A stretch of 64,000 bases of DNA from a virus. The notes below the pieces were generated by a model. The model had not been told where the DNA came from. It saw only the letters and a list, made by a program, of their open reading frames with translations, and did not search any database. A program made the translations under genes and the position numbers. The DNA is taken from IMG/VR virus record IMGVR_UViG_3300020469_000010; one strand, written 5' to 3'. Within the stretch, counting starts at the first letter, position 1, and the number at the start of each line of letters is the position of its first letter. This document shows positions 5,553 to 61,790 of the stretch, piece after piece.

Positions 5553-5591
5553 AGGGATCTGCTTGACAGGTCCTTTTTTTACGCTTATAAT
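5553..5591 (+). terminator. Terminator hairpin overlapping a sigma70 promoter
   Basis: AGGGATCTG/CAGGTCCTT + T-run; TTGACA(5563)-17-TATAAT(5586) embedded. Confidence 0.65.
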
Positions 5592-5967: not shown

Positions 5968-6197
5968 TGTCATCACCACGCCTAAGAGATCCATCTGATC
6001 CACTCTATGATCCTACTGATAAGTGGAATGCTTATAAAGTAGACTTTCACGCTAATGAAAAACACTCACCTGATGAGTGGGATCCAAAAACTGAAGGTAA
6101 GATTGCTGATCCACAGGAGAGACATAAAGATAAGGTTTTAGATAAGTTCTGTGATGATCATCCAGGTAGCCCTATGTGTAAAGTATTTGACGAGTGA
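5967..6197 (+). CDS. CP12-like protein (C-terminal CX8C loop)
   Basis: C-terminus LDKFCDDHPGSPMCKVFDE resembles the CP12 C-terminal loop. Confidence 0.65.
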   Translation: MSSPRLRDPSDPLYDPTDKWNAYKVDFHANEKHSPDEWDPKTEGKIADPQERHKDKVLDKFCDDHPGSPMCKVFDE

Positions 6198-6625
6198 TGG
6201 AAGATATTTTACATGGAACTCATTCTGCAAAATACAGTAATGAATATGGTGACTGGAGAATTTTGGACATACGATTGTTCAATGATTTAATTTTAGAGTT
6301 AAAAGATATTCAACATTTTTTGACAGATGATAAGATAAAAATACTTAAGCACAAAGATATTGGTTGGAAAGGAAGACATCTTGATGCTAAACGATCCGGA
6401 TCTGAGTGTATTTGTTGTGATGGTGTGAGATATAGAGAATGTGATCCAAGATATCCTGGTATAGTTCTTGATGGAGGTCCTAATCCATACAAGAAAAGAT
6501 ATAGGATGATTGATGGAAAACATAGAATCTCAAAACTATCTCATACGGGAATTAGAGAAAGTCCATTTTATGTTTTGGACTATGAAACAATCAAACCATA
6601 TTTTAAAATAGAGGAAGAAAAATAA
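6194..6625 (+). CDS. ParB/Srx-like domain protein
   Basis: YPGIV...YRMIDGKHRI motif. Confidence 0.55.
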   Translation: MMEDILHGTHSAKYSNEYGDWRILDIRLFNDLILELKDIQHFLTDDKIKILKHKDIGWKGRHLDAKRSGSECICCDGVRYRECDPRYPGIVLDGGPNPYKKRYRMIDGKHRISKLSHTGIRESPFYVLDYETIKPYFKIEEEK

Positions 6626-6630
6626 GAAGT

Positions 6631-7320
6631 ATGAACGACACTAAACTAATTTCTGTAACACCCAATGCAGAAAGGCACATGGCATATTGTGCTAGGGTAA
6701 GTAACCCTGCTAATCAAGATAATCAGAAAATTGCTGGTCTTCTCAAGTATTGTATTAAACATCAACACTGGAGTATCTTTGAGCAAGCATTTATGACTCT
6801 TGAAATTGAGACTACCAGAGGACTGGCAGCTCAAATTTTGAGGCATCGTAGTTTTACATATCAAGAATTTTCACAACGGTATGCTGACAGTTCTATGTTG
6901 GCAGATAGTATTCCTTTGCCTGAACTTCGTAGACAGGACACTAAGAATAGACAGAATTCTATTGATGATATTGACCCATTTGTTCGTCAAGAGTTCCAGA
7001 TCAAAATGCAAAAGCACTTTGAAGAAGGAATGAAACTGTATCAAGAGATGCTTGATGCATCGATTGCAAAAGAGTGTTCTAGATTTGTACTTCCTTTGGC
7101 CGTTCCCACAAAACTATACATGACGGGTTCTGTGCGCTCATGGATTCATTACATAGATTTGCGTTCTGCACACGGCACACAGAAGGAGCACATGGACATT
7201 GCAGAGTCTGCTAGGTGTATTTTCTGTTGTGAGTTTCCGACCATTGCAGAGGCACTGGAATGGCAGAGAAAAGAGGACTGTCCTGATTGTTACGATCAGT
7301 CTGCTATTACCATAGAATAA
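6631..7320 (+). CDS. thyX: FAD-dependent thymidylate synthase
   Basis: HWSIFE, QILRHRSFTYQEFSQRY, RSWIHYIDLR, QKEH motifs. Confidence 0.95.
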   Translation: MNDTKLISVTPNAERHMAYCARVSNPANQDNQKIAGLLKYCIKHQHWSIFEQAFMTLEIETTRGLAAQILRHRSFTYQEFSQRYADSSMLADSIPLPELRRQDTKNRQNSIDDIDPFVRQEFQIKMQKHFEEGMKLYQEMLDASIAKECSRFVLPLAVPTKLYMTGSVRSWIHYIDLRSAHGTQKEHMDIAESARCIFCCEFPTIAEALEWQRKEDCPDCYDQSAITIE

Positions 7321-7346
7321 ATATTATATACAAAAAGTTCTAGAGT

Positions 7347-7916
7347 ATGAAAGTCACAAAAAATATAACTTATGAAAAGGTTGCTAATCTAATATACTCT
7401 AATAAGATTGTTGCAATTTTTCAGGGAAATGATGAAGGTGGACCTAGAGCTTTAGGTAATAGATCAATTTTATTTAATCCTACACATTCTGGAATGCTCC
7501 GTAAAGTGAATGAAGTGAAATTGAGAGAATGGTATAGACCTTTTGCGGGTTCTATTTTACTGGATGATTTTGGAGAATGGTTTTTGAATGGGTCAATAAA
7601 AGAATCTCCTTTTATGACTTATGCAATAGAAATTAAACCAGATAAAATTTTTAAAATTCCTGCAATCATTCACATGAATAAAACTTGCAGAGTTCAAACA
7701 GTATCGCAAGAACAAAACAATCATTATTATAATCTGATTTCTGCTTTCAAAAAAGTTAGTGGAGTTCCTATTATCGGAAATACATCTTTTAATCTATCAA
7801 GGCAACCAATTGTTCATTCACTTGCTGAAGCCTTACAAACTCTTGATTTTTCAAAAATTGATTACTTGTATCTTCCAGAAAAGGCATGTCTAATTCAATC
7901 ACAGGTTGGGGAATAA
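7347..7916 (+). CDS. Carbamoyltransferase C-terminal (YrdC-like) domain, stand-alone
   Basis: GPRALGNRSIL, VKLREWYRPFA, RVQTV, NTSFN. Confidence 0.9.
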   Translation: MKVTKNITYEKVANLIYSNKIVAIFQGNDEGGPRALGNRSILFNPTHSGMLRKVNEVKLREWYRPFAGSILLDDFGEWFLNGSIKESPFMTYAIEIKPDKIFKIPAIIHMNKTCRVQTVSQEQNNHYYNLISAFKKVSGVPIIGNTSFNLSRQPIVHSLAEALQTLDFSKIDYLYLPEKACLIQSQVGE

Positions 7917-7920
7917 TAAA

Positions 7921-9180
7921 ATGTATATTCTAGGTATTAATATATCTCATGACCCTTCTTGCTGTCTTTTAAAGGATGGTAAAATTGTCTGGTATCTTGA
8001 AAACGATAGACTAACAAGAGAACAAAACTTAAGATATGGTGATGACTTAATAGATTATTATGAAACTCATGGTGAGTTTGCTAGTGCAGAAGATTTTCCT
8101 CATTGTGATAATATAAAAAAACATACACACAATTTAGATTATGTTGTCTTTGCATCTTATGGTAGAGATAATGCACAACATGATCAAATCGTAATGCAGT
8201 CTATTATTAAAAAGTTAAGTGAAGAACAGGTTGCTTTCACTAGTGCATTATTCTTCCCAGAAAAACATCATATCTATCATGCTTCTAATGGATTTTACGG
8301 ATCGGACTTTGATGATGCAGTTGCATTGGTAATGGATGGTGGTGGAGCATTTGATCCAGAGTATAGAAAAGAAGTTACTTCAAATAAGTGCAAGTTTCCG
8401 TTTAGAGAAGTAGAAACTATATACGAATGTTCTTATGAGAATGCTGAATTCAAAAAAGTATTCCAACTCAACTCAATGTTAGATAACATTCCTGGTGAAG
8501 AACCAGAAAATTATCAAGACTTCTTTTGGAAAAGAGATTGGAATGAATATTATTCCAGATCTATTAGTGCTGGTGATTTGTTTGGTGTATTTACAGATAA
8601 GTTTAATATGAGAGCTAATGATCAAGGAAAGGTCATGGGATTATCTGGACATAGAATTCCAGACATAGGTTATGGAGCATATCGAGACGGAATTGTTGAT
8701 GATGATTTAACTTATTCACCTATATTTGTACAAAATAATCCTGAAGATTTTTTCTTAACAGCAAAATGGTTCTATGAAAAGGATGGTCTATCTCTTACGA
8801 AACCATTAATATCAGAGTTACTTGAGGATTTTCTAGATAACAATGATATCGACACTTCTCTTAAGGAAAACGATTGGCATTTTCATTTGTGTGCCGAACT
8901 TGCATTTAAATTGCAGAAAGAAACATTCAAACATACATGTACTTTAATTGATAAAGCAATAAAACTTACTGGTAAAGATAAGATTGTTCTCTCTGGAGGA
9001 TACTTTATGAATTGTGTTAACAACTATAAATATACCAAGAAGTTTCCAGAACTAGAATTTTTTGTAGACCCAATGCCACATGATGCCGGTACATCAGTTG
9101 GTGCTGCTAAGTATGTTTGGCACTCTCTGACTAAAAGTAAGGATAAAATGCCACTAAAAACTTTATATACGGGACCATAA
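7921..9180 (+). CDS. Carbamoyltransferase N-terminal (Kae1-like) domain, stand-alone
   Basis: GINISHD, HHIYH, VMDGGG, GKVMGL, SGGYFMN, PHDAGTSVGAA. Confidence 0.9.
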   Translation: MYILGINISHDPSCCLLKDGKIVWYLENDRLTREQNLRYGDDLIDYYETHGEFASAEDFPHCDNIKKHTHNLDYVVFASYGRDNAQHDQIVMQSIIKKLSEEQVAFTSALFFPEKHHIYHASNGFYGSDFDDAVALVMDGGGAFDPEYRKEVTSNKCKFPFREVETIYECSYENAEFKKVFQLNSMLDNIPGEEPENYQDFFWKRDWNEYYSRSISAGDLFGVFTDKFNMRANDQGKVMGLSGHRIPDIGYGAYRDGIVDDDLTYSPIFVQNNPEDFFLTAKWFYEKDGLSLTKPLISELLEDFLDNNDIDTSLKENDWHFHLCAELAFKLQKETFKHTCTLIDKAIKLTGKDKIVLSGGYFMNCVNNYKYTKKFPELEFFVDPMPHDAGTSVGAAKYVWHSLTKSKDKMPLKTLYTGP

Positions 9181-9198
9181 TATAGTAATTACAATATA

Positions 9199-10428
9199 AT
9201 GAACATTGCTGCAATTTCGTTAACTCCACATGATGTATCTCTTTGTATTATTAAGGATGGGGAAGTATATGAAAACACTTTAGAGGAGAGATTATCTACA
9301 TTTAAAAAAGACGGGGTGCAGTATTTTATATATGATCGACTGAGTAAATTCGCATATGAATATGGTTTAGATAAACTTCTTATTGCAAATGGTTCTGATG
9401 AAGACTATAAATTAGCTGAACAATATCTGGATAAGTATGAAATTAATTGTCATATAGATTATATTCTTGAAGAGCATCATTTATATCATGCTTCTAGTGC
9501 ATTTTATGCTTCTGGATTTGATGAAGCAGCATGTTTAGTTATGGATGGTTGGGGTGCATGTCATAAACTAAAAGAGATTATAGAGACTCATACTGATATA
9601 GATACTGATTCGTATGATCAAGAACTTGATGATAGTAGAACTAAAGCAGTATTTGCGGAATCAAGTAGTGTTTATATGGTAAAGGATCATGTGTTTACAC
9701 CAGCAGGTAAACATTATTATATCGTTCCAGAGTCTAGCACTGAAGACACTCATGTTAGTAGTGTACTTAATTCTCAGGATTATTATTCAAAACTTGCCAA
9801 ATATCATGAATTGGAATTCAGTCATTGTTTTGGTATGGGTATGATGTACGGAACACTATCAGAATATTTGGGGTTTGATAGAGAAAGTTGTGGTAAAACA
9901 ATGGGTCTTTCTGCATTTGGTAAAGAAGATCCAGAACTACCATCGTTTGTGGAGGAGAATAAATTATATGGAAATCCTAGTTTATTTTATTACACAAGAA
10001 ATTTTAATGGAAGGTATCATCCAAGTCTGATTCATAATAATGATTTTCAGAAAAGAGCAAATATTGCATATAAATTACAGAAGTCTGTTGAGGAGGCAAT
10101 TGTTATTAGAGTCGGTAATATTTTAGAGAATTATCCGGATACAAAAAATATTGTTTTCTCTGGTGGAGTTGCTCTAAATATATGTGCAAATTCTGCGGTT
10201 AAAGAAAAATATCCAGATTTAAATTTCTTCGTTGATCCTATAGCATCAGATGCTTGTCAAGCATTTGGGATGGCACAGTATCACAATTCTGATAAGAAAG
10301 AATATAAACCGTTAGAATCAATATATCTTGGTCCAAAATATGATTTACAAATGAAAAAAATAGACATTGAAATTGCTGTTGCAAAAGGGAATAAAAAGAT
10401 GTATAATAAAAACATTAATAGGGAATGA
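9199..10428 (+). CDS. Carbamoyltransferase N-terminal (Kae1-like) domain
   Basis: PHD, EERLS, HHLYH, VMDGWG, GKTMGL, SGGVALN. Confidence 0.9.
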   Translation: MNIAAISLTPHDVSLCIIKDGEVYENTLEERLSTFKKDGVQYFIYDRLSKFAYEYGLDKLLIANGSDEDYKLAEQYLDKYEINCHIDYILEEHHLYHASSAFYASGFDEAACLVMDGWGACHKLKEIIETHTDIDTDSYDQELDDSRTKAVFAESSSVYMVKDHVFTPAGKHYYIVPESSTEDTHVSSVLNSQDYYSKLAKYHELEFSHCFGMGMMYGTLSEYLGFDRESCGKTMGLSAFGKEDPELPSFVEENKLYGNPSLFYYTRNFNGRYHPSLIHNNDFQKRANIAYKLQKSVEEAIVIRVGNILENYPDTKNIVFSGGVALNICANSAVKEKYPDLNFFVDPIASDACQAFGMAQYHNSDKKEYKPLESIYLGPKYDLQMKKIDIEIAVAKGNKKMYNKNINRE

Positions 10429-10991
10429 GTATGCTTGATATTAAATATGATGTTTCATATGAAGACATTGTTGAACGTATGCTCGATAAAAAAATTGGAG
10501 CTATTCATCAAGGAAGATCTGAAATAGGACCTAGAGCATTAGGTAATAGATCCATTATTTTTGATCCTAGAATTCCTAACGGAAAAGATATCGTCAATAC
10601 TGTAAAGAAGAGAGAAAGTTTTAGACCGTTTGCTGGTTCTGTCTTAGAGGAACATGCTCATGAATGGTTTGATATGATTGGGTTGAAGAATTCTCCTTTT
10701 ATGACATTTAATCTAAGAGTAAATCCTGATAAGAAAAAGTATATACCAGCAATTACACATGTTGATGATACATGCAGAATACAAACAGTTAGTAAACAAG
10801 ATAATCTACATTATTATAATTTAATTATGGAGTTCTATAAACAAACTAATGTTCCAATGATATTAAATACATCTTTCAATCTTGCCGGAGATGCAATTGT
10901 TGAAACTGTAGAACATGCTATTAAGACATTGAATAAATCTGATATGGATTATGTTTATTTTGCTGATGTTCATATGGTAGTTGAAAAATGA
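10425..10991 (+). CDS. Carbamoyltransferase C-terminal (YrdC-like) domain
   Basis: EIGPRALGNRSI, VKKRESFRPFA, HVDDTCRIQTV, LNTSFN. Confidence 0.9.
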   Translation: MSMLDIKYDVSYEDIVERMLDKKIGAIHQGRSEIGPRALGNRSIIFDPRIPNGKDIVNTVKKRESFRPFAGSVLEEHAHEWFDMIGLKNSPFMTFNLRVNPDKKKYIPAITHVDDTCRIQTVSKQDNLHYYNLIMEFYKQTNVPMILNTSFNLAGDAIVETVEHAIKTLNKSDMDYVYFADVHMVVEK

Positions 10992-12217
10992 ATCTTGCAG
11001 TTTTATCTTTTAATGGTCATGACACTGGGGTTAGTTTTATTTGTGAAGGAAAACACTATGAAACTATTTTAGAAGAACGTTGTAGTGGTATAAAAGAAGA
11101 TGAATACCCGTTTAGAATTTTTGAGCATATTCAAAAAGTAGATGACAAATATCCTCTCGATAAAATTATTTCTATAAATGGTACTGATACTCAGTTTCAG
11201 TATAGTGATACTATATTAGAAAAATATTTTCATGATATTGGATCAGATAAAGAGACTATAGAGATTGATTATGAATCTGAAGAACATCATTTATATCATG
11301 CTGCATCTGGATTTTATTCATCTGGACTTGATGAAGCAGTATGCTTAGTTATGGATGGTTGGGGAGCTGATGTTCGAATGCTTGATCTCCTAGAATTTGT
11401 TGGAATGGATAAGAATTTATCAAAAGAAGATCTTGATGAGGTAAAACAATTAGATAGTTATAAGTTTTTAGAAACAACATCAATTTATGATGCTTCTTAT
11501 CCATGCAATTTTAAGGTATTGTATAAAAATTACTTGAGACCTCATCCACCACCAGAAATATATCTTGAAAAAAATGATTTTCCTTATAAATTCTTAAATG
11601 AATTGGAGAAATATCCAATAATAACTTGCAATTCATGCTATGATGTCGGAATGCTATATGGATTGATTAGTGCTCATTTATTTGGGAACACTGAGTTCTG
11701 TGGAAAGGTTATGGGACTTTCATCTTATGGAAAACCAAATAAAAGATTGCCAAAATTTATTATAGAAAATGGGTATGTTGATATGAATTTTGCATTTAGT
11801 GAAATGTGTGTCAACACCGTAAATTTTCCATCAATGATTCACAATGATGATTTTCAACATCGAGCTGATATTGCATATAAAGTACAAAAACATACAGAAG
11901 ATATTTTTAGGATGAAAGTAAAACAAATCCTTAAGTTAAAACCTGATGTTAAAAATGTCATACTTTCTGGTGGAGTTGCTTTAAATATCTGCGCTAACTC
12001 AATAATTCAAGAAGAGTATCCTGATATTAATTTTTATGTTGACCCTATATCATCGGATGGTTGCCAATCATATGGAGCAGCAAAGTATTTTTATTACAAA
12101 GATACTAAATCTATGATTAAAGATCCACTCTATACAACTTACTACGGAAACCATCAACCAGATCCAAGGATTCTACAAAAACGGATTGAATTGGAGGTTG
12201 CTAAGCACATGTGCTAA
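10988..12217 (+). CDS. Carbamoyltransferase N-terminal (Kae1-like) domain
   Basis: GHD, EER, HHLYH, VMDGWG, GKVMGL, SGGVALN, SDG..YGAA. Confidence 0.9.
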   Translation: MNLAVLSFNGHDTGVSFICEGKHYETILEERCSGIKEDEYPFRIFEHIQKVDDKYPLDKIISINGTDTQFQYSDTILEKYFHDIGSDKETIEIDYESEEHHLYHAASGFYSSGLDEAVCLVMDGWGADVRMLDLLEFVGMDKNLSKEDLDEVKQLDSYKFLETTSIYDASYPCNFKVLYKNYLRPHPPPEIYLEKNDFPYKFLNELEKYPIITCNSCYDVGMLYGLISAHLFGNTEFCGKVMGLSSYGKPNKRLPKFIIENGYVDMNFAFSEMCVNTVNFPSMIHNDDFQHRADIAYKVQKHTEDIFRMKVKQILKLKPDVKNVILSGGVALNICANSIIQEEYPDINFYVDPISSDGCQSYGAAKYFYYKDTKSMIKDPLYTTYYGNHQPDPRILQKRIELEVAKHMC

Positions 12218-12250
12218 GCACAATAAATAAACTACACTCTGAAACAAATT

Positions 12251-12502
12251 ATGGCAACTTATCCTGTAAAACACAAGGAAACTGGTGAAACTAAAGATGT
12301 TGTTATGAGCATTCATGACTGGGATCAGTGGAAAAAAGACAACTCTGATTGGGAAAGATACTATACTCCGGAAAATTCACCTGGACTAGGTTTAGAACCA
12401 GTTGGTGAATGGAAGGATAAACTTGTCAAATCAAAACCAGGATGGAATGAAGTGCTTGAAAAAGCATCATCTGCACCAGGAGCAAAAAACTTAAAGATTT
12501 AA
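12251..12502 (+). CDS. Conserved cyanophage hypothetical protein
   Basis: MATYPV...GWNEVL, typical gene preceding phoH; ATAAATA upstream. Confidence 0.7.
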   Translation: MATYPVKHKETGETKDVVMSIHDWDQWKKDNSDWERYYTPENSPGLGLEPVGEWKDKLVKSKPGWNEVLEKASSAPGAKNLKI

Positions 12503-12503
12503 A

Positions 12504-13265
12504 ATGGCTAGAAAGAAAAGAAACAACGATAACGTTGGTATTAATTCTGAGTATCATCGTTTAGCATTAAAAGGTAAGAAACCAATTAATACAGACCATC
12601 TTTTAGATGTAGAAGCACTTACTCCAAATCAACAGAGACTTTTTGATTCTTATCAAAAGGGGAAACATGTTATTGCATATGGAACAGCAGGAACAGGTAA
12701 GACATTTATTACTCTGTATAATGCAATCAAAGATGTTCTAAATCAATTTACACCTTATGAAAAGGTCTATGTTATTAGATCTCTAGTTGCAACAAGAGAG
12801 ATTGGATTTCTTCCTGGAGATCATGATGATAAGTCAAACCTTTATCAAATTCCATATAAGAACATGGTTAAGTACATGTTCCAAATGCCTTCTGATGCTG
12901 AGTTTGAGATGCTCTATGGCAATCTAAAGACTCAAGGAACTGTAAGTTTCTGGAGTACATCTTTTATCAGAGGAACAACTTTTGATAACTCAATCTTATT
13001 GATTGATGAGTTTCAGAACTTGAATTTTCACGAACTTGATAGTATAATGACGAGAGTTGGTGACAACTGCAAGATTATGTTTTGTGGTGATGCAACTCAA
13101 AGTGATTTGACAAAAACTAATGAGAAGAATGGCATCGTTGACTTTATGAAAATAATGAATCAAATGCCTTCAGTAGATGTTATCGAATTTGATGCTGATG
13201 ATATCGTAAGATCTGGTCTATGTCGAGAATATATTATTGCTAAAAATGAACTTGGAATTATGTAA
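12504..13265 (+). CDS. phoH: PhoH-family ATPase
   Basis: GTAGTGKT Walker A, IGFLPG, RGTTF, IDEFQN, GDATQSD. Confidence 0.95.
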   Translation: MARKKRNNDNVGINSEYHRLALKGKKPINTDHLLDVEALTPNQQRLFDSYQKGKHVIAYGTAGTGKTFITLYNAIKDVLNQFTPYEKVYVIRSLVATREIGFLPGDHDDKSNLYQIPYKNMVKYMFQMPSDAEFEMLYGNLKTQGTVSFWSTSFIRGTTFDNSILLIDEFQNLNFHELDSIMTRVGDNCKIMFCGDATQSDLTKTNEKNGIVDFMKIMNQMPSVDVIEFDADDIVRSGLCREYIIAKNELGIM

Positions 13266-53408: not shown

Positions 53409-54083
53409 ATGAGTGTTGATTATTCAATTTATTTTGGTGAAAATGAGGATAGCAATCCTGGTAATGAAGATTATATAATTCCTATATTTTCAGTTCCTTT
53501 ATTTCACTATAAAGTAGAAAATTGGCCAGAGAAAAAAGAAAAATTGATGGAATTATATAATAAAAGATTAGAAAGTAACATGTTAAAAAGAACTGGAGGT
53601 ATGAATGATGTAGAAACTGATTATCATGCTAATTTTGATAATGAATATAATTATTCGGATGATATCACTGACATCTTTGAAAGTGAATTAGTAGATTTTG
53701 CTGATGCTTCAGACTTGGCAATTTCTGTAAACTCTACATGGTTTGAAAGATCATCTAAAAATAGTTTACATTCATGTCATAATCATGGACCAATAGGATA
53801 TAGTGCAGTTTGCTTCATTCAATTTGATCCTAAATATCATACACCAACGGTGTTTATGAATCCAGTAACTGCTGCTGTTTCACCATGTAGTTTGATGCCA
53901 CCAGGAATAAGAGAAGGATCTTTAATTTTATTTCCATCATATCTTTTACATTTTACAAATTCTAATGAAAGTGATGTGGATAGAATTATATTATCATTTA
54001 ACTTAGAATCTGAAGAGGAAAGTCAAAAATTTTCTGATGATGATGATGCACATGACGGTGAATACTACTCAAAATCCTGCTAA
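53409..54083 (+). CDS. 2OG-Fe(II) oxygenase (TIGR02466-like)
   Basis: STW...HSCHNH...YSAVCFI...LFPSYLLH...RIILSFN. Confidence 0.85.
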   Translation: MSVDYSIYFGENEDSNPGNEDYIIPIFSVPLFHYKVENWPEKKEKLMELYNKRLESNMLKRTGGMNDVETDYHANFDNEYNYSDDITDIFESELVDFADASDLAISVNSTWFERSSKNSLHSCHNHGPIGYSAVCFIQFDPKYHTPTVFMNPVTAAVSPCSLMPPGIREGSLILFPSYLLHFTNSNESDVDRIILSFNLESEEESQKFSDDDDAHDGEYYSKSC

Positions 54084-54639
54084 AGTTTTTATTCTTCGTA
54101 ATTTTTTATTTGAAGATGATGTAAAAGAACTTAATCAGTGGACACTTAGGAACAACCATTTGCATTATTTTAAAGATGCTTGTATGGATCCTGATAATCA
54201 TGGGACGAGATTTACAACTCGACGTTGTAATGAAGAAATAGCAGGAGACATAGACTATCCAAAGTCTGCATATGTTATACAAAAAAGAATAATCAATTAT
54301 TTTCACCTAGAAGGATATAAAAGTCCACCATCATATAGTCATGGAATTGTAACTGGAATTGGATACGATGGTGGAAGAATAGAGAATCACATTGATCCTA
54401 CATACTATCCAGATACAAAAACAGTTCACTTCAATGCTATCACACAACAAGCAGAAGAGGGTGGACATACCATCATTGATGGTGTAGAATATAAAAATGT
54501 AAATCCTACGGATCTTTTAATCTATCAAGTATCTGAACTTCATCATGAAGTAACATCAACTAAAGGAAATACTCCTAGAATACTTTGGGTTTTTGGTTTT
54601 TGCCTTGACAACGAAAAAATAGAGGAAATTTTTTTATGA
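54052..54639 (+). CDS. 2OG-Fe(II) oxygenase
   Basis: HID...EEGG...HHEV...RILWVFG. Confidence 0.8.
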   Translation: MTVNTTQNPAKVFILRNFLFEDDVKELNQWTLRNNHLHYFKDACMDPDNHGTRFTTRRCNEEIAGDIDYPKSAYVIQKRIINYFHLEGYKSPPSYSHGIVTGIGYDGGRIENHIDPTYYPDTKTVHFNAITQQAEEGGHTIIDGVEYKNVNPTDLLIYQVSELHHEVTSTKGNTPRILWVFGFCLDNEKIEEIFL

Positions 54640-55361
54640 CAGTAGAATTGTTTGAACTTAATGACCTATCTAATATGAAAGTCATTAAATTTAATGATGG
54701 AGATAGTGTATCAAATATTTACTGGATGGATAATTTTTACAAAGATCCAGATGGTGTATTTGATTATATTCAATCTGAAGAACCACCCCTATGGAAATAT
54801 GGAGATGAGTGGAAAGAATTCATGGAGACTTCATTGAACACCAAAACTTTTGAAGACAGACGACATATGAGAAAAACACCATATTTAAAAAAGGTGTATA
54901 AAGCATTGTCAAAGTTTACTGGTCAGGATGCAATGGATTATGATCTTGTCACAAACTACACTAGATTTAGTAGAGTAAAAGAAAATCCATATAAAACACA
55001 TTATTGGTGGCCTCATCATGACGCAGGATATAATGGTATTTGCTATCTGACAAAAAATGAAGAAATTGGAACCAATTTATACAAACCATTAATTACCGAT
55101 AATCCAGAAATTTTACCTCTAGATGAAAATGATTCTTATAGAAATGAACATGGAATACCATGGACACCTAAAAAATTGTGGGATATTGTAGTCAGATTAC
55201 GTTCAAAATATAATAGATTTGTTATGTTTGAAGGATCTATGTACTATCATAGCATGGACTTGACTGGTAAATATTATTTTGCTGATCATTATAGTAATGC
55301 TGATTATCGTATCAATCAAGTATTCTTTTTTAGAAATGAATCATCTCCATATTCAGACTGA
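54636..55361 (+). CDS. 2OG-Fe(II) oxygenase-like (DUF6445-like)
   Basis: DNFYKDPD, PHHD, ICYL...GTNLY, KYNR.V.F....YH, RINQVFF. Confidence 0.75.
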   Translation: MTVELFELNDLSNMKVIKFNDGDSVSNIYWMDNFYKDPDGVFDYIQSEEPPLWKYGDEWKEFMETSLNTKTFEDRRHMRKTPYLKKVYKALSKFTGQDAMDYDLVTNYTRFSRVKENPYKTHYWWPHHDAGYNGICYLTKNEEIGTNLYKPLITDNPEILPLDENDSYRNEHGIPWTPKKLWDIVVRLRSKYNRFVMFEGSMYYHSMDLTGKYYFADHYSNADYRINQVFFFRNESSPYSD

Positions 55362-55367
55362 AGTATA

Positions 55368-56063
55368 ATGCACAAACATAAGATAAATCGCACTTACTAT
55401 GAGGACACTCATGAAGATAATAATCAAGAAAATGATTCAAATCATATAGAGATTCATGATGTACAATCTGAACAAATTTTTTCAACTCCAATTTGGAGTA
55501 TGGAAATTGATACTGATAATGATGCAATACTTGAAGAATGTTATGATTTAGAACGCAAATTTCCTAATGGAGTTCGTAAATCTAATGCAGGAGGGTGGCA
55601 AAGTGATGTATTTGAAATTGAAACTATAAGTCCCTTTATGACTCCTAAAATTCAAATTTTAGCAAGAAATGTAGAAGATATTACTTATGATTTGGTAGAA
55701 GAATTTGCCGGAGGAAAGAAAAATCTTTCTGCTAATGTTGGTAAAGATCAAATAGGATGGTGGATTAACATTAACAGAGGATATTCATATAATGTTTATC
55801 ACACCCATCCGGGATGTGCATTGATTGCATTATATTATGCAAAAATCCCAAATAATAAAGACGAAAGAGAAGGTAATTTAGTTCTCTTAAGACAAGATTC
55901 AATGAATCATAATAATGTATTTGCTAACATAGGAGAACTATGTGAGGCTAATATCATACCACAAGAAAAACATTTGTATATAATGCCTTCAGTTGTAGCA
56001 CATTATGTCACTGCACATACTTGCAATGAAGATAGAATTTCTATTGCATTTAATATTGGATAA
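55368..56063 (+). CDS. 2OG-Fe(II) oxygenase (TIGR02466-like)
   Basis: SNAGGWQS, WININ, HTHPG, YYAK, PS...HYV, RISIAFN. Confidence 0.85.
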   Translation: MHKHKINRTYYEDTHEDNNQENDSNHIEIHDVQSEQIFSTPIWSMEIDTDNDAILEECYDLERKFPNGVRKSNAGGWQSDVFEIETISPFMTPKIQILARNVEDITYDLVEEFAGGKKNLSANVGKDQIGWWININRGYSYNVYHTHPGCALIALYYAKIPNNKDEREGNLVLLRQDSMNHNNVFANIGELCEANIIPQEKHLYIMPSVVAHYVTAHTCNEDRISIAFNIG

Positions 56064-56099
56064 ATAGAATGATACTGAAATTTTTTGGTAGGTAAATAT

Positions 56100-56627
56100 A
56101 TGTCAATTCTACAGGCCAGTGGCATACAATTTGGAGATAATACAGTTTTAAATTCCAAGTATGGAATTATTCCTCAGGGAAGCAGTATGGTATTCTATAA
56201 ATCTTCTGCTCCAAGTGGATGGACAAAATCTACAGCACATAATAATAAAGCATTAAGAGTTGTATCTGGATCTGGTGGTGGATTTGGTTCTGGTGGAACT
56301 TCTGGACCGGGAGGATCTTCCTTCACTTCTATCATGGCAAGTAGAAGTGTTTCTGGATCAGTAACTTCGGGTGGTGCTGTTGGTAATCATACATTAACAT
56401 TGCAGCAAATTCCATCACATAGTCATAATGCAGGTTCTAGTGTAACTGTTAGTCCAGGTAGTCCTGGTACACAAGGTCGTGCTGTTAATAGTCAAGCACC
56501 TAATACAGGTAGTGCTGGAGGAGGTTCATCTCATAATCACCCATTTAGTGGTGGTACTTCTCCTGTTTCTGGTAGTGTTGATTTGAGAGTTCAATATATT
56601 GATGTTATTGTTTGTAGTTTTAACTGA
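56100..56627 (+). CDS. Short tail-collar/needle-type fibre protein
   Basis: FYKSSAPSGWTK..HNNKALRVVSG, HTLTLQQIPSHSH, GGGSSHNH, VQYIDVIVC; TAAATA at 56061. Confidence 0.75.
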   Translation: MSILQASGIQFGDNTVLNSKYGIIPQGSSMVFYKSSAPSGWTKSTAHNNKALRVVSGSGGGFGSGGTSGPGGSSFTSIMASRSVSGSVTSGGAVGNHTLTLQQIPSHSHNAGSSVTVSPGSPGTQGRAVNSQAPNTGSAGGGSSHNHPFSGGTSPVSGSVDLRVQYIDVIVCSFN

Positions 56628-56636
56628 GGACAATAA

Positions 56637-57923
56637 ATGGCAATTTTACAAACCGATGGCCTACAGTTTGGAAATGGTGGTGTAATTGAGACAAAATATT
56701 TTTTAGTCCCACAAACAACTCAGATGTTGTTTTATCAAGCATCTGCACCAACTGGATGGACTAAAAAAACAACACACAATAATAAAGCATTAAGAGTTGT
56801 ATCTGGAACTGGTGCAGGTAGTGGTGGTACTAGTAGTTTTACAAGTATATTCAAGTCCAGTAATACTGTATCAATGTCAGGATCTCATAGTGGATCTGTT
56901 GGCAATACAACATTATCTTTACAACAACTTCCATCACATAGTCATGGTGTTGGAAGTCCATTCAGCGCAGTCAGTTCTGCCGGTACTTCTCCATTCAGAC
57001 AACCACGAAGACAACCTAGATCATACTCTTTCAGGGCTGAATATAGACAACCAAGAAACTTTCGAGCTTCAGTTGCTTTCAGACGACCAATTCAGTTTAG
57101 ACAACCAAGAAATAGTCAAGTTGCAATTAGGCAAAGAAGAGACGTCAGATTTAGAAATGAACTTGAAATAAGATCAAGAAATCCGTTTAGATATAGAAGT
57201 CCATACAGACAACCAAGATCTTATAATACAACTGTATCAGTAAGATACAGGCAACCATTTAATAATAGAGTTGATTCTGGTAGAAATAGAAGTCCATCTA
57301 GACAAAGACGTTCTGTCAATTTTACAGTCAATCAAAGAAGGGAAGATAGGGGAAGAAGACGAGATCTAAAACGCAGAAGAAATCAGAGAAGAAGAACTGA
57401 TGTTCGTTTTAGATTGTCAGCTCGAGTAAGAGTTAATCAACGAAGAAGAAGCAACTTCAGACAAAGAAGACAGACTACTACTAACCAACCGGCAAGACAG
57501 AGAAGAGATGCTCGGCAGCCGAGAAGTTATAGTAATCAGGCTGATGTGAGACAAAGAAGATCTGACAGACAAAGAAGAGATGTCCCACAGCGTGCTAGGT
57601 ATCAAGGAAGGTTAAGAGTTGAAATTAGACAACCACGCAGATATCAAGCCTTTGTAGAATTTAGACAAAGTGCTGCTTATAGGCAACCAAGAACTTTCAG
57701 ACTAGCAAGAAGATACCCAGCAACAAATAATAATAGAGCAAATCAAAGAATATTGACACCCGGTGGAACTATTAGAGGAGTTAATACTCAAGGACCTGCA
57801 ACTTCGTCGGCTGGTGGAGGTTCATCTCATAATCATCCGTTTAATGGACAATCTTTCTCAACATCTTTAGGTCTTGATATAAGATTACAGTATATTGATG
57901 TTATTATGTGCTCTTTTAACTAG
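56637..57923 (+). CDS. Tail-collar/needle-type fibre protein with ~250-aa Arg-rich insert
   Basis: Same N- and C-terminal scaffold as upstream paralog; RQPR/RQRR-rich insert between the HSH and HNH motifs. Confidence 0.75.
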   Translation: MAILQTDGLQFGNGGVIETKYFLVPQTTQMLFYQASAPTGWTKKTTHNNKALRVVSGTGAGSGGTSSFTSIFKSSNTVSMSGSHSGSVGNTTLSLQQLPSHSHGVGSPFSAVSSAGTSPFRQPRRQPRSYSFRAEYRQPRNFRASVAFRRPIQFRQPRNSQVAIRQRRDVRFRNELEIRSRNPFRYRSPYRQPRSYNTTVSVRYRQPFNNRVDSGRNRSPSRQRRSVNFTVNQRREDRGRRRDLKRRRNQRRRTDVRFRLSARVRVNQRRRSNFRQRRQTTTNQPARQRRDARQPRSYSNQADVRQRRSDRQRRDVPQRARYQGRLRVEIRQPRRYQAFVEFRQSAAYRQPRTFRLARRYPATNNNRANQRILTPGGTIRGVNTQGPATSSAGGGSSHNHPFNGQSFSTSLGLDIRLQYIDVIMCSFN

Positions 57924-57973
57924 ACAAATTGTACATATTCTGATAGACTAAATAAGACAAAGAATTTTTTAGT

Positions 57974-58357
57974 ATGAGTGATGCGTTTGGAAAATGGTGT
58001 CCCTTAATAAGAAAAAACTGTATTGAACATAAGTGTGCTTGGTATATGCGTATTGCTGGACTAGATCCTAATACTGGTCAAGAAATTGATCATTGGGGAT
58101 GTGCAATAAGTTGGATGCCAACTTTACTTATTGAAAACTCACAACAACAGAGGCAAACTGGTGCTGCTGTTGAGTCTTTCCGTAATGAAATGGTCAATGC
58201 AAATGAAAGTAATCAACAAATGTTAGATGCTGTTGGTAACATGTATCTTGATATGTGCGAGCAACAGGGTGTCAATGTTGATCAATATATAGAACCTTTA
58301 GAAGGCATAGATAATAACGAAGAAAACATTTTACCACCTGAAGAGGAAAGACCATGA
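57974..58357 (+). CDS. Conserved Cys-containing protein associated with tail-collar genes
   Basis: CPL....C....CAW...G.DPNTG....WGCA..W.P.LLIENSQQQRQTGAAVESFRNEMV. Confidence 0.7.
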   Translation: MSDAFGKWCPLIRKNCIEHKCAWYMRIAGLDPNTGQEIDHWGCAISWMPTLLIENSQQQRQTGAAVESFRNEMVNANESNQQMLDAVGNMYLDMCEQQGVNVDQYIEPLEGIDNNEENILPPEEERP

Positions 58358-59691
58358 AAATTTCTATTATTCCACAAGATAATCGTATTGTAGTTGATGG
58401 AAAAACTGTAGATCTTGATGATAATGATATTAGGTGGGAATTTGAAGATGAGCATATTCATGCTATTCAGTGGAAAGATAGCATGGGTGAAGTTGAATAT
58501 GAAGATGAAATTGGTAAAGATCCTCTTCCCAATAAATCCTTTGGTCAGGATGAATTTGATACCATTGTTCAACCATACTTGTCTTTCTTTGAAAAATTTC
58601 TAACTGTTACAGAGCAAAATGAACTTGAGGCTATATTAGAAGAAGAAGAGAGATTAGCAAATGATATAAAAGAATCAGATCTTAATAAGATGCAAGAAGA
58701 AGAAAATATTTTAATGATAGAAGATCTTCAGTTACAAAATAAAGAAGTTAGACAAAATTATATGCAAATTGCTGCCGAATTAGGTGATGTTCTTGAAGAG
58801 AAAAAAGTAACTGAACAACAACTTAAACTAGAATATGATAAAGAATTGTTTGAAAAAGATCAATTGCTTAAGCAACAAGAACATGCAAAGATAGAGGAGT
58901 TTTTTAAAAAAAAATCGGCCGATTTTCTTGCAAACTTAGAAAAACTTGAAGAAGATTTTAATTCCCAGAAAGAAAATCTTGCCGAAGAAAAAAAACAATT
59001 TAACGACTATATACAAAAATATAGAGATACTTTAGAAAAAGAAAGTGAAGAAATCAATGAACAATTATTAGAAGGCAAAAGAAATGCAGAAAAAGATAAA
59101 ATTTTAAAAGAAAAGTCACAAGCTAATGCTGAAGAGTCAATGTCTATAATGAGGGCAGCAAATGAATTAGAACAGCAAAGTATGGAATTGGCATTTGAAG
59201 AATTGGAGTTAGAAAAAACTCGTTTACGGAATGAAAGAAGATTGGAAATTGAACGAATCAAACTTCTTGAAGATGAACTAGAAAAAGAAAAGGAAAATAT
59301 TGAACTGTCATACATCCAAGAAAGAGAAGAAATACTTAAGTATGATATGAAAGATGATGCAGAACTTACATTCTATCAGTGGCAATTAAAAGATACTGCT
59401 GAACTTGAAGCTGATTATATTAAAAAACAACAAGATAAATTCGACGATTACATTGCTGAGCGGGAAGGAACCTATAGAGATATTGAAGAACGCGTTCGTC
59501 TTAAAGAAATTGAAGGGAAATCTGAACTTAAAGAAGTTGAAGATGTTTCATCCATCCTTGATGAAATTAATCCAGAGGAATTTTATCAATCTCTTACAGA
59601 TGATCAAAGAGATTCAAATAGTTTTCCGGTAGAAAAAGCAACTGCTTGGTTTAAAAAACTAAAAGAGGTAATGGAAAAGAATGAATCTTGA
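58354..59691 (+). CDS. Tail-fibre-assembly-like N-domain fused to long acidic coiled coil
   Basis: IIPQD..IVVDG...IHAIQW....GEVEY then Glu/Lys-rich helical region. Confidence 0.6.
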   Translation: MKISIIPQDNRIVVDGKTVDLDDNDIRWEFEDEHIHAIQWKDSMGEVEYEDEIGKDPLPNKSFGQDEFDTIVQPYLSFFEKFLTVTEQNELEAILEEEERLANDIKESDLNKMQEEENILMIEDLQLQNKEVRQNYMQIAAELGDVLEEKKVTEQQLKLEYDKELFEKDQLLKQQEHAKIEEFFKKKSADFLANLEKLEEDFNSQKENLAEEKKQFNDYIQKYRDTLEKESEEINEQLLEGKRNAEKDKILKEKSQANAEESMSIMRAANELEQQSMELAFEELELEKTRLRNERRLEIERIKLLEDELEKEKENIELSYIQEREEILKYDMKDDAELTFYQWQLKDTAELEADYIKKQQDKFDDYIAEREGTYRDIEERVRLKEIEGKSELKEVEDVSSILDEINPEEFYQSLTDDQRDSNSFPVEKATAWFKKLKEVMEKNES

Positions 59692-61135
59692 TTTGTTGAG
59701 GAACAACTATTTGGTTGTTCCAAATTTTATTACCAAAAAAGAAGCATTAAAATTAAAGACGGAATTTGAATTAACAGATGAAGTTTTTGAATTTTCCGGT
59801 GATGAACAGGCACCTAATTCATCATCAATATATAATTATCTTCCTGCGTTAGAACTTTTAGCAAATAAAACATCACATGTATCTGAAATTATAGGTGAAA
59901 CTGTTTTACCAACTTATGTTTACTCCAGAATTTATCATAATGGGAGTGAATTAGTAAAACATACAGATCGTCCAGCATGTGAAATATCTTTAACTCTACA
60001 TCTTGGTGGAGATAAACCTTGGGCAATTTGGATAAAAACACCTAATAATAAAAATAAGTGTGTAAATTTGAATCCAGGTGATGCTATGCTATACTTGGGT
60101 TGCATTGCTCCACATTGGAGAGATACTTTTGAGGGAGATAATTATACACAGTTTTTCTTACATTATGTTAGGAGTCGTGGATGTTGTAATAGTGTTTATT
60201 TTGATAAACATGATAATGACAGTGATTTACCATCAAACCATAAATTGAATCATTTTTTAGAAAAGGAGTATGAACAAATGGGAAGACTTATTATACCAAG
60301 AAAATGGGAAGAATGTGATGAATTACTAAATGAATTTAATGAAAATAATCTTGAAATAGTTGATTCTGATTCGGAGTCGCAATATATTGATTTTGATGAT
60401 TCAAAATCAAAAATTTTTAGTAAACAAAAAGAACCTAAAATTGAACCCAAGTCAGAAGAATATTTTGATTTTGATGAAGTAGTAATTATCAACAAAAAAT
60501 ATGAGAAGAATTTTGTTGAAACAACTTCTAAAAAAGAGGTAAAAGATGTAAAAGATGCAAAACTTTCAAATAAAAGTTTGCATGAGTTTATACTGCATGT
60601 TGAAAATTGGATTGAACCAGATTTTTGTGATGAATTACTAAATGAATATGCAGATACTAATTTTTGGGAACCAACATTAACTGGTAGTGGATATGATCCA
60701 GGTTCTAGGAAATGTAATGTTATCAATATTTCTGACGAACATATTAAAAATGAAGCAAATACTGAGACTAGAAATGAACTTGACGAGTATCTATTTGAAA
60801 AAGTTTCAAAGTTAATTAACAAATATCAATCTGAGAATGATGATTTCTTGTTAGAAATGCAGGAAGATAGTGGATATGAACTGTTAAAGTATGAAGTTGG
60901 TGATTTTTTCCTTGAACATAGTGATTCTTTCAAAGAAAATCCTAGAGCTTTAACTATAATTTTTGCATTGAATGATAATTATAAAGGTGGTGAAATCGGA
61001 TTTTTCAAAAGAGAGTTAATTTATAGGTTAAATGTTGGAGATGCTATAATTTTTCCAGCTAATTTCATGTATCCACATGAAATTCTTCCAGTTACCGAAG
61101 GAATTAGATTCTCGGTAATTACATGGATTGTTTGA
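59681..61135 (+). CDS. Tandem two-domain 2OG-Fe(II) oxygenase
   Basis: Domain 1 HTDRPACEIS...HWR...FLHY; domain 2 HSD...YKGGE...FPANFMYPHEI...RFSVITW. Confidence 0.85.
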   Translation: MNLDLLRNNYLVVPNFITKKEALKLKTEFELTDEVFEFSGDEQAPNSSSIYNYLPALELLANKTSHVSEIIGETVLPTYVYSRIYHNGSELVKHTDRPACEISLTLHLGGDKPWAIWIKTPNNKNKCVNLNPGDAMLYLGCIAPHWRDTFEGDNYTQFFLHYVRSRGCCNSVYFDKHDNDSDLPSNHKLNHFLEKEYEQMGRLIIPRKWEECDELLNEFNENNLEIVDSDSESQYIDFDDSKSKIFSKQKEPKIEPKSEEYFDFDEVVIINKKYEKNFVETTSKKEVKDVKDAKLSNKSLHEFILHVENWIEPDFCDELLNEYADTNFWEPTLTGSGYDPGSRKCNVINISDEHIKNEANTETRNELDEYLFEKVSKLINKYQSENDDFLLEMQEDSGYELLKYEVGDFFLEHSDSFKENPRALTIIFALNDNYKGGEIGFFKRELIYRLNVGDAIIFPANFMYPHEILPVTEGIRFSVITWIV

Positions 61136-61790
61136 TATGAAAGATACTACATTCATTGGTGTTTATGATAATGTATTTACTAAATTACAATGTAAAGAAA
61201 TTATAGATTATTTTGAACAATCTAACGGTCGAACTATTATAGACAACGATGAAGCAATTCATCATAGAAATGATGAGCAACTTTTTATTCTTGATGACGG
61301 TAATGATGACGATAAAAATTATTCTGGTGATACAAAAATTTTTAATTTAGTCAATGATGGTGTGCAAAAATGTTATGATCTTTATCAAAAACGATACTGG
61401 GTTGTTAAAAAAAATGATTTAACTTTTGACCAAGATCATATTAAAATTCAAAAAACTTTACCTAGAGGTGGTTATCATATTTGGCATTGTGAGATAGATA
61501 GTTTACATATGGTTGACAGATGTTTGGTCTGGTTATTATATCTAAATGACATACCTAAAGGTGAAGGTGAAACAGAATTTTTATGGCAAGGTATTAGAGT
61601 ACAACCAAAAGCAGGGACGATGGTAGTTTGGCCCGCATTTTTCACACATTATCATAGAGGGAACCCCGTTTATTCATGTAGTAAATATATTGCAACTGGT
61701 TGGGGACATTATAGAACTGCCGACGAATGTGTTGAAGACTATTTTGAACGAGAAGAAGAAGACATCAATTTTATTAGGAGAAAAGACTAA
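61128..61790 (+). CDS. 2OG-Fe(II) oxygenase (prolyl-hydroxylase-like)
   Basis: GGYHIWHCE, YLND...GETEF, WPAFFTHYHRGNP, KYIATGW. Confidence 0.88.
   Translation: MFDMKDTTFIGVYDNVFTKLQCKEIIDYFEQSNGRTIIDNDEAIHHRNDEQLFILDDGNDDDKNYSGDTKIFNLVNDGVQKCYDLYQKRYWVVKKNDLTFDQDHIKIQKTLPRGGYHIWHCEIDSLHMVDRCLVWLLYLNDIPKGEGETEFLWQGIRVQPKAGTMVVWPAFFTHYHRGNPVYSCSKYIATGWGHYRTADECVEDYFEREEEDINFIRRKD

Follow-up and report, generated by a model that had tools for sequence, protein, structure and literature searches.

To our knowledge, all TobZ/NodU-type carbamoyltransferases studied structurally and biochemically are single chains, with the adenylate passing between two fused domains. In these fused enzymes (TobZ), both active sites open onto one shared chamber. 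Homologous folds operate in t6A synthesis, where TC-AMP diffuses from TsaC to TsaD. The class III O-carbamoyltransferases, including TobZ (PDB 3VEN), GdmN (7VYJ), VtdB (7XB6), NovN (9S2T) and NodU/NolO, combine a Kae1-like module (PF02543), placed first, with a YrdC-like module (PF16861), placed second. The family also has a phage-encoded representative, a single 63-kDa chain that uses ATP and carbamoyl phosphate to carbamoylate 5hmC in both DNA and RNA and is found together with a hydroxymethylase of the ThyA family (PF00303; Yang et al. 2021, eLife, PMC8670742).

The window analyzed here, a 64,000-nucleotide stretch of DNA from a marine T4-like cyanophage (IMG/VR record IMGVR_UViG_3300020469_000010), contains both modules as separate genes. 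Five intact genes occupy positions 7347-12217 on the plus strand in the order C1-N1-N2-C2-N3, where the two C genes encode YrdC-like halves (PF16861) and the three N genes encode Kae1-like halves (PF02543). The surrounding region is devoted to nucleotide metabolism and replication (thyX, phoH, Cas4-like nuclease, gp59, gp32). The array and its flanking genes are as follows:

6194..6625, plus strand: conserved cyanophage protein of 143 aa (phrog_35149), upstream of thyX, also present in several relatives
6631..7320, plus strand: thyX, flavin-dependent thymidylate synthase (PF02511, E 9e-45)
7347..7916, plus strand: C1, 189 aa, putative stand-alone YrdC-like subunit of type A, predicted to form carbamoyl-AMP (PF16861, E 1e-54, 184.8 bits)
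7921-9180, plus strand: N1, 419 aa from ATG, putative stand-alone Kae1-like transfer subunit of type A, predicted cognate partner of C1 (PF02543, E 9e-13, 48.8 bits)
9199-10428, plus strand: N2, 409 aa, putative additional Kae1-like transfer subunit of type B (PF02543, E 1e-21, 77.8 bits)
10425-10991, plus strand: C2, 188 aa, putative stand-alone YrdC-like subunit of type B, predicted to form carbamoyl-AMP (PF16861, E 3e-59, 199.8 bits)
10988-12217, plus strand: N3, 409 aa, putative Kae1-like transfer subunit of type B, ortholog of the last N in C-N-C-N arrays (PF02543, E 8e-20, 72.0 bits)
12251..13265, plus strand: small transcriptional regulator (phrog_385) and phoH

Gene Organization and Catalytic Motifs

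All five genes score well above the Pfam gathering cut-offs (24 bits for PF02543 and 27 bits for PF16861). The ORFs and Pfam matches thus agree with an initial sequence-only reading of the window, which had described five split carbamoyltransferase genes arranged C-N-N-C-N. C1 covers profile positions 1-165 of 170 and N1 positions 2-345 of 346; N1 also matches phrog_1601 (E 2.5e-45). For N1 we use the ATG at 7921, 4 nt past the C1 stop, instead of the TTG at 7906 given in the ORF list; the annotation of a sister phage uses the equivalent start. C2 is overlapped by 4 nt on each side, by N2 and N3, stop and start codons sharing the sequence ATGA at these junctions. No terminator was found inside the array.

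The signature motifs named in the sequence-only reading are all present in the translations: HHxxH, DGxG, GKxMGL and SGG..N in the three N proteins, and GPRALGNRS, RPFA and NTSFN in the two C proteins. In GdmN, H27 acts as general base, and H133, H137, D156 and D333 are metal ligands (PMC9633730). In our alignment, the equivalent general-base histidine and the metal-binding His, His, Asp and Asp are invariant in N1, N2 and N3, as well as throughout N clades A and B (see below). N2, for instance, keeps the catalytic His, HHxxH, DGWG, the final Asp, GKxMGL and SGG..N. The YrdC-like motifs are likewise invariant in C1 and C2, and C2 shows every one of them when aligned to the YrdC-like domains of VtdB and GdmN. 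AlphaFold2 models of N1 (pLDDT 84.7) and N2 (pLDDT 80) are confident, with residues 179-193 of N2 modeled at low confidence. The best fold matches of N2 are TobZ and VtdB, followed by TsaD/Kae1. For type-B N proteins, a helix is predicted at the C-terminus.

The array proteins thus share modules, metal ligands, general base and YrdC-like motifs with class III O-carbamoyltransferases, which are also their best sequence and fold matches. However, class III enzymes are single chains with N preceding C, whereas here the modules are encoded by separate genes, C before N. Judging by these features, the array appears to be a split, order-reversed variant of a class III O-carbamoyltransferase. It also differs from class III enzymes in having two co-resident types, surplus N genes and N proteins enlarged by 30-70 residues around the acceptor pocket. 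Separate encoding of a YrdC-fold adenylate former and a Kae1-fold transferase is shared with t6A synthesis (TsaC/Sua5 and TsaD/Kae1). However, the TsaD models TIGR03723 and TIGR00329, with cut-offs of 296 and 208 bits, give scores of only 19-25 bits, the C proteins match only the carbamoyltransferase family PF16861 and not TsaC, TsaB and TsaE partners are lacking, and the predicted donor group is carbamoyl, not threonylcarbamoyl.

Distribution and Synteny in Cyanophages

In T4-like cyanophages, cassettes made up of two to six of these genes lie between thyX and the regulator/phoH pair, which form the left and right borders of an insertion hot spot. The cassette takes the form C-N in S-RIM44-like phages, C-N-C-N in S-SCSM1-like phages (usually followed by an RmlB-like dehydratase gene), C-N-C-N-N in related cyanophages, C-N-N-C-N in the window phage and lineage L085, and C-N-N-C-N-N in the sister phage, where it was recovered in three independent assemblies (ENA, JGI, Logan). 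S-SCSM1 and S-RIM44 have the cassette at the same thyX/phoH site as the window. Compared with S-SCSM1, whose type-A genes are 63% (C1) and 50% (N1) identical, the window has an additional type-B N ahead of C2, which brings the array to five genes, and no dehydratase. The cassette is widespread in cyanophages and its genes are already annotated in GenBank: S-SCSM1 has four and S-RIM44 two under the label "Nol-like carbamoyltransferase", which in P-SSM2 is given to a fused form. The word "carbamoyl" does not occur in the S-SCSM1 paper, and the cassette genes are not mentioned there. Fused forms predominate in other phages.

Phylogenetic trees resolve two unit types, A (C1 and N1) and B (C2 and N3). 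C1 and C2 fall into the type-A and type-B C clades, respectively, N1 into N clade A (support 100), and N2 and N3 into N clade B. Across about 35 split loci, the C gene comes first in every stand-alone pair, and no locus has fewer N genes than C genes. The two C types are found together in at least 15 lineages, where each always immediately precedes an N of its own type. The extra N genes, N2 included, all belong to clade B and all adjoin a type-B C. As S-RIM44-like phages have only type A, and L105 and L108 only type B, we regard each type as an autonomous unit.

Upstream of thyX, the 6194-6625 gene is part of the syntenic backbone and lies outside the enzyme system. It had been called ParB-like from the sequence; its product has no match in Pfam, NCBIfam or PDB sequences, while the neighbor cluster in ESM-Atlas is auto-named ParB/Sulfiredoxin and the S-SCSM1 annotation reads "chromosome segregation protein", so a ParB/Srx-like fold is possible. 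The thyX gene was correctly placed ahead of the array by the same reading. It encodes a canonical enzyme with an RHR...S motif and evolves slowly (dN/dS 0.07-0.08). In S-SM2 and S-H38, which lack the array, thyX directly abuts the regulator and phoH; therefore, its adjacency to the array is only positional.

Divergence and Selection

Pairwise identity is 30% for N1-N2, 28% for N1-N3, about 40% for N2-N3 and 46% for C1-C2. As anticipated from the sequence, N alignments place the greatest divergence of the Kae1-like copies after DGxG. This hypervariable stretch lies next to the elements that define the acceptor pocket in GdmN, and the insert evolves nearly neutrally. Relaxed selection had been named beforehand as a sign of decay; in comparisons with two relatives, each of the five genes shows purifying selection, with dN/dS of 0.13-0.21 for C1 (95% identical to its sister phage counterpart), 0.23-0.26 for N1, 0.34-0.39 for N2, 0.10-0.18 for C2 and 0.32-0.34 for N3. 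The N2 value, the highest of the five, includes a segment near 1.0 (residues 101-200) and a catalytic half at 0.10-0.26. N3 is a mosaic of sister phage N3 and N4; its residues 221-360 are 88-97% identical to sister N4 and 75-88% to sister N3.

Proposed Mechanism and Alternative Explanations

We hypothesize that the five genes probably encode a heteromeric class III (TobZ/NodU-type) O-carbamoyltransferase system in which several transferases share one type-B activator, with a sugar hydroxyl as the likeliest acceptor. Each C protein would convert carbamoyl phosphate and ATP to carbamoyl-AMP, and each metal-dependent N protein would then carbamoylate a hydroxyl on an acceptor specific to that protein. 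The array would comprise two cognate units, each C then N: C1 with N1 (type A) and C2 with N3 (type B). N2 would be a second type-B transferase, translationally coupled to C2, from which we infer it to draw its carbamoyl-AMP. One activator would thereby supply two transferases here and three in the sister phage, with different acceptor pockets. The cassette itself forms an accessory module between thyX and the regulator/phoH of T4-like cyanophages, probably expressed alongside early and middle genes. A combinatorial system with shared adenylation subunits had been proposed from the sequence, and part of this idea is supported: the extra N genes next to, and of the same type as, one C, together with N genes never being fewer than C genes, fit shared activators and several acceptor-specific subunits. 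However, since there are two unit types, the array is not fully combinatorial.

Physical pairing of C and N would be dispensable if C proteins were free carbamoyl-AMP synthases and N proteins independent transferases capturing the diffusing adenylate, gene numbers then reflecting dosage and acceptor range. The t6A pathway works in this way with homologous folds, TsaD is among the fold matches of N2, and N genes exceed C genes in several lineages; moreover, mirror-tree correlations are uniformly high (0.90-0.97) and do not single out the cognate C-N pairs, giving no pair-specific co-evolution. Nevertheless, we consider this rather unlikely, because indiscriminate feeding of any N by any C would not readily account for the type-specific arrangement seen in at least 15 lineages, and the common chamber of fused enzymes such as TobZ also argues against it. 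A non-catalytic structural role of N2, resembling that of TsaB for TsaD, or its being a redundant or decaying duplicate, could account for its elevated dN/dS and poorly modeled segment, but is very unlikely given its retained general-base histidine, both metal-binding histidines and both aspartates, GKxMGL and SGG..N, the constraint on its catalytic half, and its conserved orthologs in L084 and L085; its sub-lineage even provides the sole type-B N in L086-L088. The heteromeric system with a shared C2 remains our preferred reading.

An origin of the split layout in sequencing or assembly errors, or in the decay of fused genes into pseudogene fragments, was ruled out and has practically no probability. 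The best 80 cellular loci are either fused or show N-then-C breaks resembling frameshifts (the latter in a few MAG loci), but a frameshift in an N-C gene cannot produce the C-then-N order; the same layout occurs in the isolates S-SCSM1 and S-RIM44, the sister phage genes are separate in each of its assemblies, and none of the five genes is truncated or free of purifying selection.

Carbamoyl-AMP might simply diffuse, in which case "sharing" of C2 need not involve a complex.

Predicted Acceptor

A sugar hydroxyl, either of a nucleotide sugar or of a host or virion surface glycan, is the likeliest candidate acceptor, ahead of DNA. In most relatives an RmlB-like sugar-nucleotide dehydratase gene comes after the array, an RmlB-like SDR following 13 complete C-N-C-N loci, which points to sugar chemistry. 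Carbamoylation of 5-hydroxymethyl pyrimidines in phage DNA (DNA/RNA hypermodification), in the manner of the fused phage 5hmC enzyme, would suit the kinship with that enzyme and the nucleotide-metabolism/replication setting of the array; it is nevertheless improbable. The 5hmC enzyme is linked to a ThyA-family hydroxymethylase, whereas the array neighbors a canonical ThyX that keeps its place in phages without the array. Searches of two complete genomes (S-SCSM1 and S-RIM44) and of a 154-kb relative found no PF00303 hydroxymethylase, and no TET/JBP protein scored above the family cut-off in the two complete genomes. The DNA-base carbamoylation suggested as one option by the sequence-only reading therefore finds no support, and neither does a link to phage 2OG oxygenases, those of the window being of the PF13759/PF13640 types.

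The sugar hint comes only from relatives, as the window array has no dehydratase of its own.

Biological Implications

Separately encoded, order-reversed modules present in unequal numbers raise the questions of how carbamoyl-AMP reaches the transferase, whether several transferases can rely on a single donor subunit and how acceptor specificity evolves; as modular parts, the split modules could also be useful in enzyme engineering. The cassette occurs, unremarked, in abundant ocean cyanophages, including the cultured S-SCSM1 and S-RIM44, and its substrate could reveal a phage-driven modification of the Synechococcus/Prochlorococcus surface, of virions or of nucleic acids. More tentatively, we speculate that the cassette may be a "one donor, many transferases" toolkit, in which a conserved YrdC-like subunit feeds one to three Kae1-like subunits, pocket-flanking inserts diversify fast and whole alleles are captured in tandem by inter-phage recombination. 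If so, phage lineages could direct carbamoylation to different hydroxyls, on surface glycans or elsewhere, in the course of an arms race.

Gene Content and Layout of the Array

The window derives from a T4-like cyanomyovirus of low GC content (about 34%), whose best DNA matches are the Synechococcus phages S-SCSM1 and S-RIM44 (about 69% identity). Positions 6194–12217 hold seven co-oriented ORFs encoding a 143-aa conserved phage protein, ThyX and five carbamoyltransferase halves, either stand-alone YrdC-like activators (C) or stand-alone Kae1-like transfer proteins (N):

7347–7916, + strand: C1, Carbam_trans_C (PF16861), E 1e-54
7921–9180, + strand: N1, Carbam_trans_N (PF02543)
9199–10428, + strand: N2, Carbam_trans_N (PF02543)
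10425–10991, + strand: C2, Carbam_trans_C (PF16861), E 3e-59
10988–12217, + strand: N3, Carbam_trans_N (PF02543)

E-values for PF02543 range from 9e-13 to 1e-21 across N1–N3, and PHROGs places all five half-genes in the "Nol-like carbamoyltransferase" family. The C-N-N-C-N order proposed in the sequence-only reading is thus borne out, and every signature motif listed there is present in the translations. The ATG at 7921, 4 nt past the C1 stop, is the most likely start of N1; gene calls in a sister phage, whose array has a sixth gene (N4), also begin N1 at this position. The N2/C2 and C2/N3 junctions are 4-nt overlaps (ATGA), a translationally coupled arrangement.

The gene at 6194–6625 exists as described, but its earlier "ParB-like" label is weakly supported: searches of Pfam, NCBIfam and PDB sequences gave no hit, leaving one ESM-Atlas lead, a neighbor cluster auto-named ParB/Sulfiredoxin. 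Its S-SCSM1 homolog is annotated as a chromosome segregation protein, and several cyanomyoviruses keep the gene upstream of thyX.

At 5563–5591, ahead of the small-ORF/thyX/carbamoyltransferase block, a perfect sigma-70 consensus (TTGACA-17-TATAAT) could be an early promoter driving the array. Promoter-like sites are not enriched in the window (38 versus a mean of 38.5 in shuffled sequence). Terminator-like sites number 4 versus 2.5 in shuffled sequence, and none was found on the + strand within the array.

Recurrence of the Cassette in Phage and Cellular Genomes

About 110 viral loci were fetched with profiles of the C proteins and of the N proteins of type B (the C2 + N3 unit; C1 + N1 being type A), and their ORFs were sorted by HMMs built from our own alignments. 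Among the best 80 C-domain loci in IMG/VR, the majority encode a fused N-C protein of 570–620 aa, with two or three such genes in tandem at some loci, while split pairs occur in seven, all in C-then-N order. Two or three full-length fused carbamoyltransferases stand in tandem on viral contigs L065, L049, L078, L046, L064 and L069. The C-then-N order could plausibly have arisen from such arrays, by duplication and then loss of the outer halves. Of the best 80 cellular-genome loci, 73 have a fused gene and 2 more have two fused copies each; the remaining five show frameshift-like N-then-C breaks with overlapping frames. About 4,650 metagenome proteins have the size of a stand-alone C domain (185–188 aa in many cases), although some of those listed are fragments of fused genes; the split form is therefore abundant in nature.

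Searches with type-B N proteins returned the array family, whose members are all located in the interval from thyX to the small regulator/phoH of cyanomyoviruses. In S-SM2 and S-H38 the regulator and phoH directly follow thyX with no array between them, so the array was inserted into a conserved backbone, and its place beside thyX is a matter of position. On one further cyanophage contig (L103) a type-B N gene (7012–8178) lies upstream of thyX, outside this usual hot spot; the contig stops right past thyX.

Table. Gene orders in the array family (L-numbers denote fetched loci; SDR, RmlB-like dehydratase)
C-N: S-RIM44-like phages, 8–9 loci
C-N-C-N, then SDR enzyme: S-SCSM1 and 12 further complete loci
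C-N-C-N without SDR: L104, L110
C-N-C-N-N: L106, L107
C-N-N-C-N: window, L085
C-N-N-C-N-N: sister phage (L084/L117, L115, L116)

None of the fetched viral loci has more C than N genes. Proteins of the sister phage are 88–95% identical to those of the window; its array was recovered in independent assemblies from ENA and JGI data, and its first four genes on three Logan contigs.

Several "Nol-like carbamoyltransferase" CDSs are already annotated in the GenBank entries of S-SCSM1 and S-RIM44. The S-SCSM1 paper does not discuss these genes, and the literature searched gave no account of a class III carbamoyltransferase that is split or reversed in order.

Two Unit Types and Their History

The split N proteins fall into two clades, both supported at 100%. 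N1 groups in clade A with the N of single pairs and the gene in second position of all double arrays; clade B takes in N2 and N3 together with the final N of double arrays and all surplus N genes. The C tree, in which the groups but not the backbone are resolved, matches this division, uniting C1 with first-position C proteins and C2 with third-position ones, with a third group for single pairs. Since S-RIM44-like phages carry type-A pairs alone, and L105 and L108 type-B pairs alone, each C-then-N pair behaves as an autonomous unit and double arrays contain one of each. Forcing all split N genes into a single clade gave p 0.14 in the AU test, a value compatible with either one or two origins of the split.

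Within clade B, N3 is the ortholog of the usual last N, and the N2 sub-lineage provides the sole type-B N of L086–L088. Because N2 and N3 belong to separate sub-lineages, the window lineage carries two type-B "alleles" in tandem. N4 of the sister phage is a younger duplicate of N3. Residues 221–360 of the window N3 are 88–97% identical to the sister N4 versus 75–88% to the sister N3, while both ends are closer to the sister N3, making the window gene a mosaic. A direct repeat, GCTAAGCAC, lies on either side of its stop codon (12200–12222). Together these sequence features suggest recombination or deletion between tandem N3/N4 paralogs.

Catalytic Residues, Selection and the Variable Region

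Decay under relaxed selection, which the sequence-only reading had named as an outcome that would count against it, is refuted: dN/dS relative to the sister phage and L085 is 0.10–0.21 for the C genes and 0.23–0.39 for the N genes, so all five are functional. The GdmN structure defines iron ligands (H133, H137, D156 and D333), a general base (H27) and acceptor-pocket elements (PMC9633730). When these roles were transferred through a profile-to-GdmN alignment, the five catalytic residues proved invariant in N1, N2, N3 and 20–21 members per clade. For the C halves, conservation was judged at the motif level, and neither type shows any change in the YrdC-like motifs. AlphaFold2 models are confident (pLDDT 84.7 for N1 and 80.0 for N2), and the N2 fold best matches TobZ and VtdB, followed by TsaD/Kae1, GdmN and NovN.

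The segment after DGxG, previously singled out as the most divergent part of the N proteins, corresponds to an insert of about 50 residues relative to GdmN, running from pocket loop 2, right after DGxG, to pocket helix 2, beside the acceptor-pocket elements. It contains the stretches in which the N2 model has low confidence. Its dN/dS in N2 is about 1.0 and that of the N-terminal half of N3 about 0.65, versus 0.10–0.26 for the catalytic halves of both proteins. These features fit either a specificity-determining or a weakly constrained surface element.

Proposed Mechanism and Pairing of the Halves

By analogy with the established TobZ/GdmN mechanism, the C protein would use ATP and carbamoyl phosphate to form carbamoyl-AMP, and the N protein would pass the carbamoyl group on to a hydroxyl of the acceptor. 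C1 would partner N1, and C2 would supply both N3 and N2, as well as N4 in the sister phage. A conserved C-terminal helix of about 25 residues is predicted in type-B but not in type-A N proteins; positioned like the interdomain linker of fused enzymes, it is a candidate docking element. A serious rival is a diffusing adenylate, with N proteins drawing carbamoyl-AMP from a common pool as in the case of TsaC and TsaD. However, C proteins of two distinct types have been maintained, and each keeps its place upstream of the matching N type, a pattern that favors specific pairing over a common pool. Mirror-tree correlations of pairwise C and N distances, intended to reveal type-specific co-evolution, are 0.90–0.97 for all pairs, cognate or not, and so do not discriminate. 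The earlier idea of shared activators remains plausible and is partly supported by N genes being at least as numerous as C genes and by all surplus N being type B, with C2 itself as the putative shared partner.

Possible Acceptors

DNA-base carbamoylation, linked in the sequence-only reading to the 2OG oxygenases of the phage, found no backing. A nucleic-acid acceptor has a single basis, the analogy with the fused phage 5hmC carbamoyltransferase, which co-occurs with a ThyA-family hydroxymethylase (PMC8670742). However, the suggested hydroxymethylase search, run in the complete S-SCSM1 and S-RIM44 genomes and a 154-kb relative, revealed no PF00303 protein and no TET/JBP match above cut-off, the window thyX has a canonical motif and very low dN/dS, and the 2OG oxygenases are of PF13759/PF13640 types and distant from the array. 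We therefore regard nucleic acid as a quite improbable acceptor. ThyX was also considered as a hidden hydroxymethylase and ruled out by its canonical motif, strong conservation and identical site in array-free phages. Seven ORFs were scanned at 53409–61790: four match PF13759 or PF13640 (the latter prolyl-hydroxylase-like), three have no Pfam match and none matches a TET/JBP family.

Directly 3′ of most C-N-C-N arrays lies the SDR gene (L001:10481–11497, and at the corresponding place in 12 other loci among L087–L100). Its closest family is dTDP-glucose 4,6-dehydratase, with a score of 235.6 bits, under the 365.1-bit equivalog cut-off. To our knowledge, sugars or secondary-metabolite hydroxyls are the targets of all characterized carbamoyltransferases of this family with known acceptors, except for the 5hmC enzyme. 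Because of these acceptors and the dehydratase neighbors in relatives, we tentatively favor a sugar or glycan over nucleic acid, at slightly under an even chance. Surplus-N lineages (the window, L084, L085 and L106/L107) all lack the SDR; in the window lineage the dehydratase was lost or never present. The array is a real and mechanistically interesting, otherwise ordinary-looking variant of class III carbamoyltransferases.
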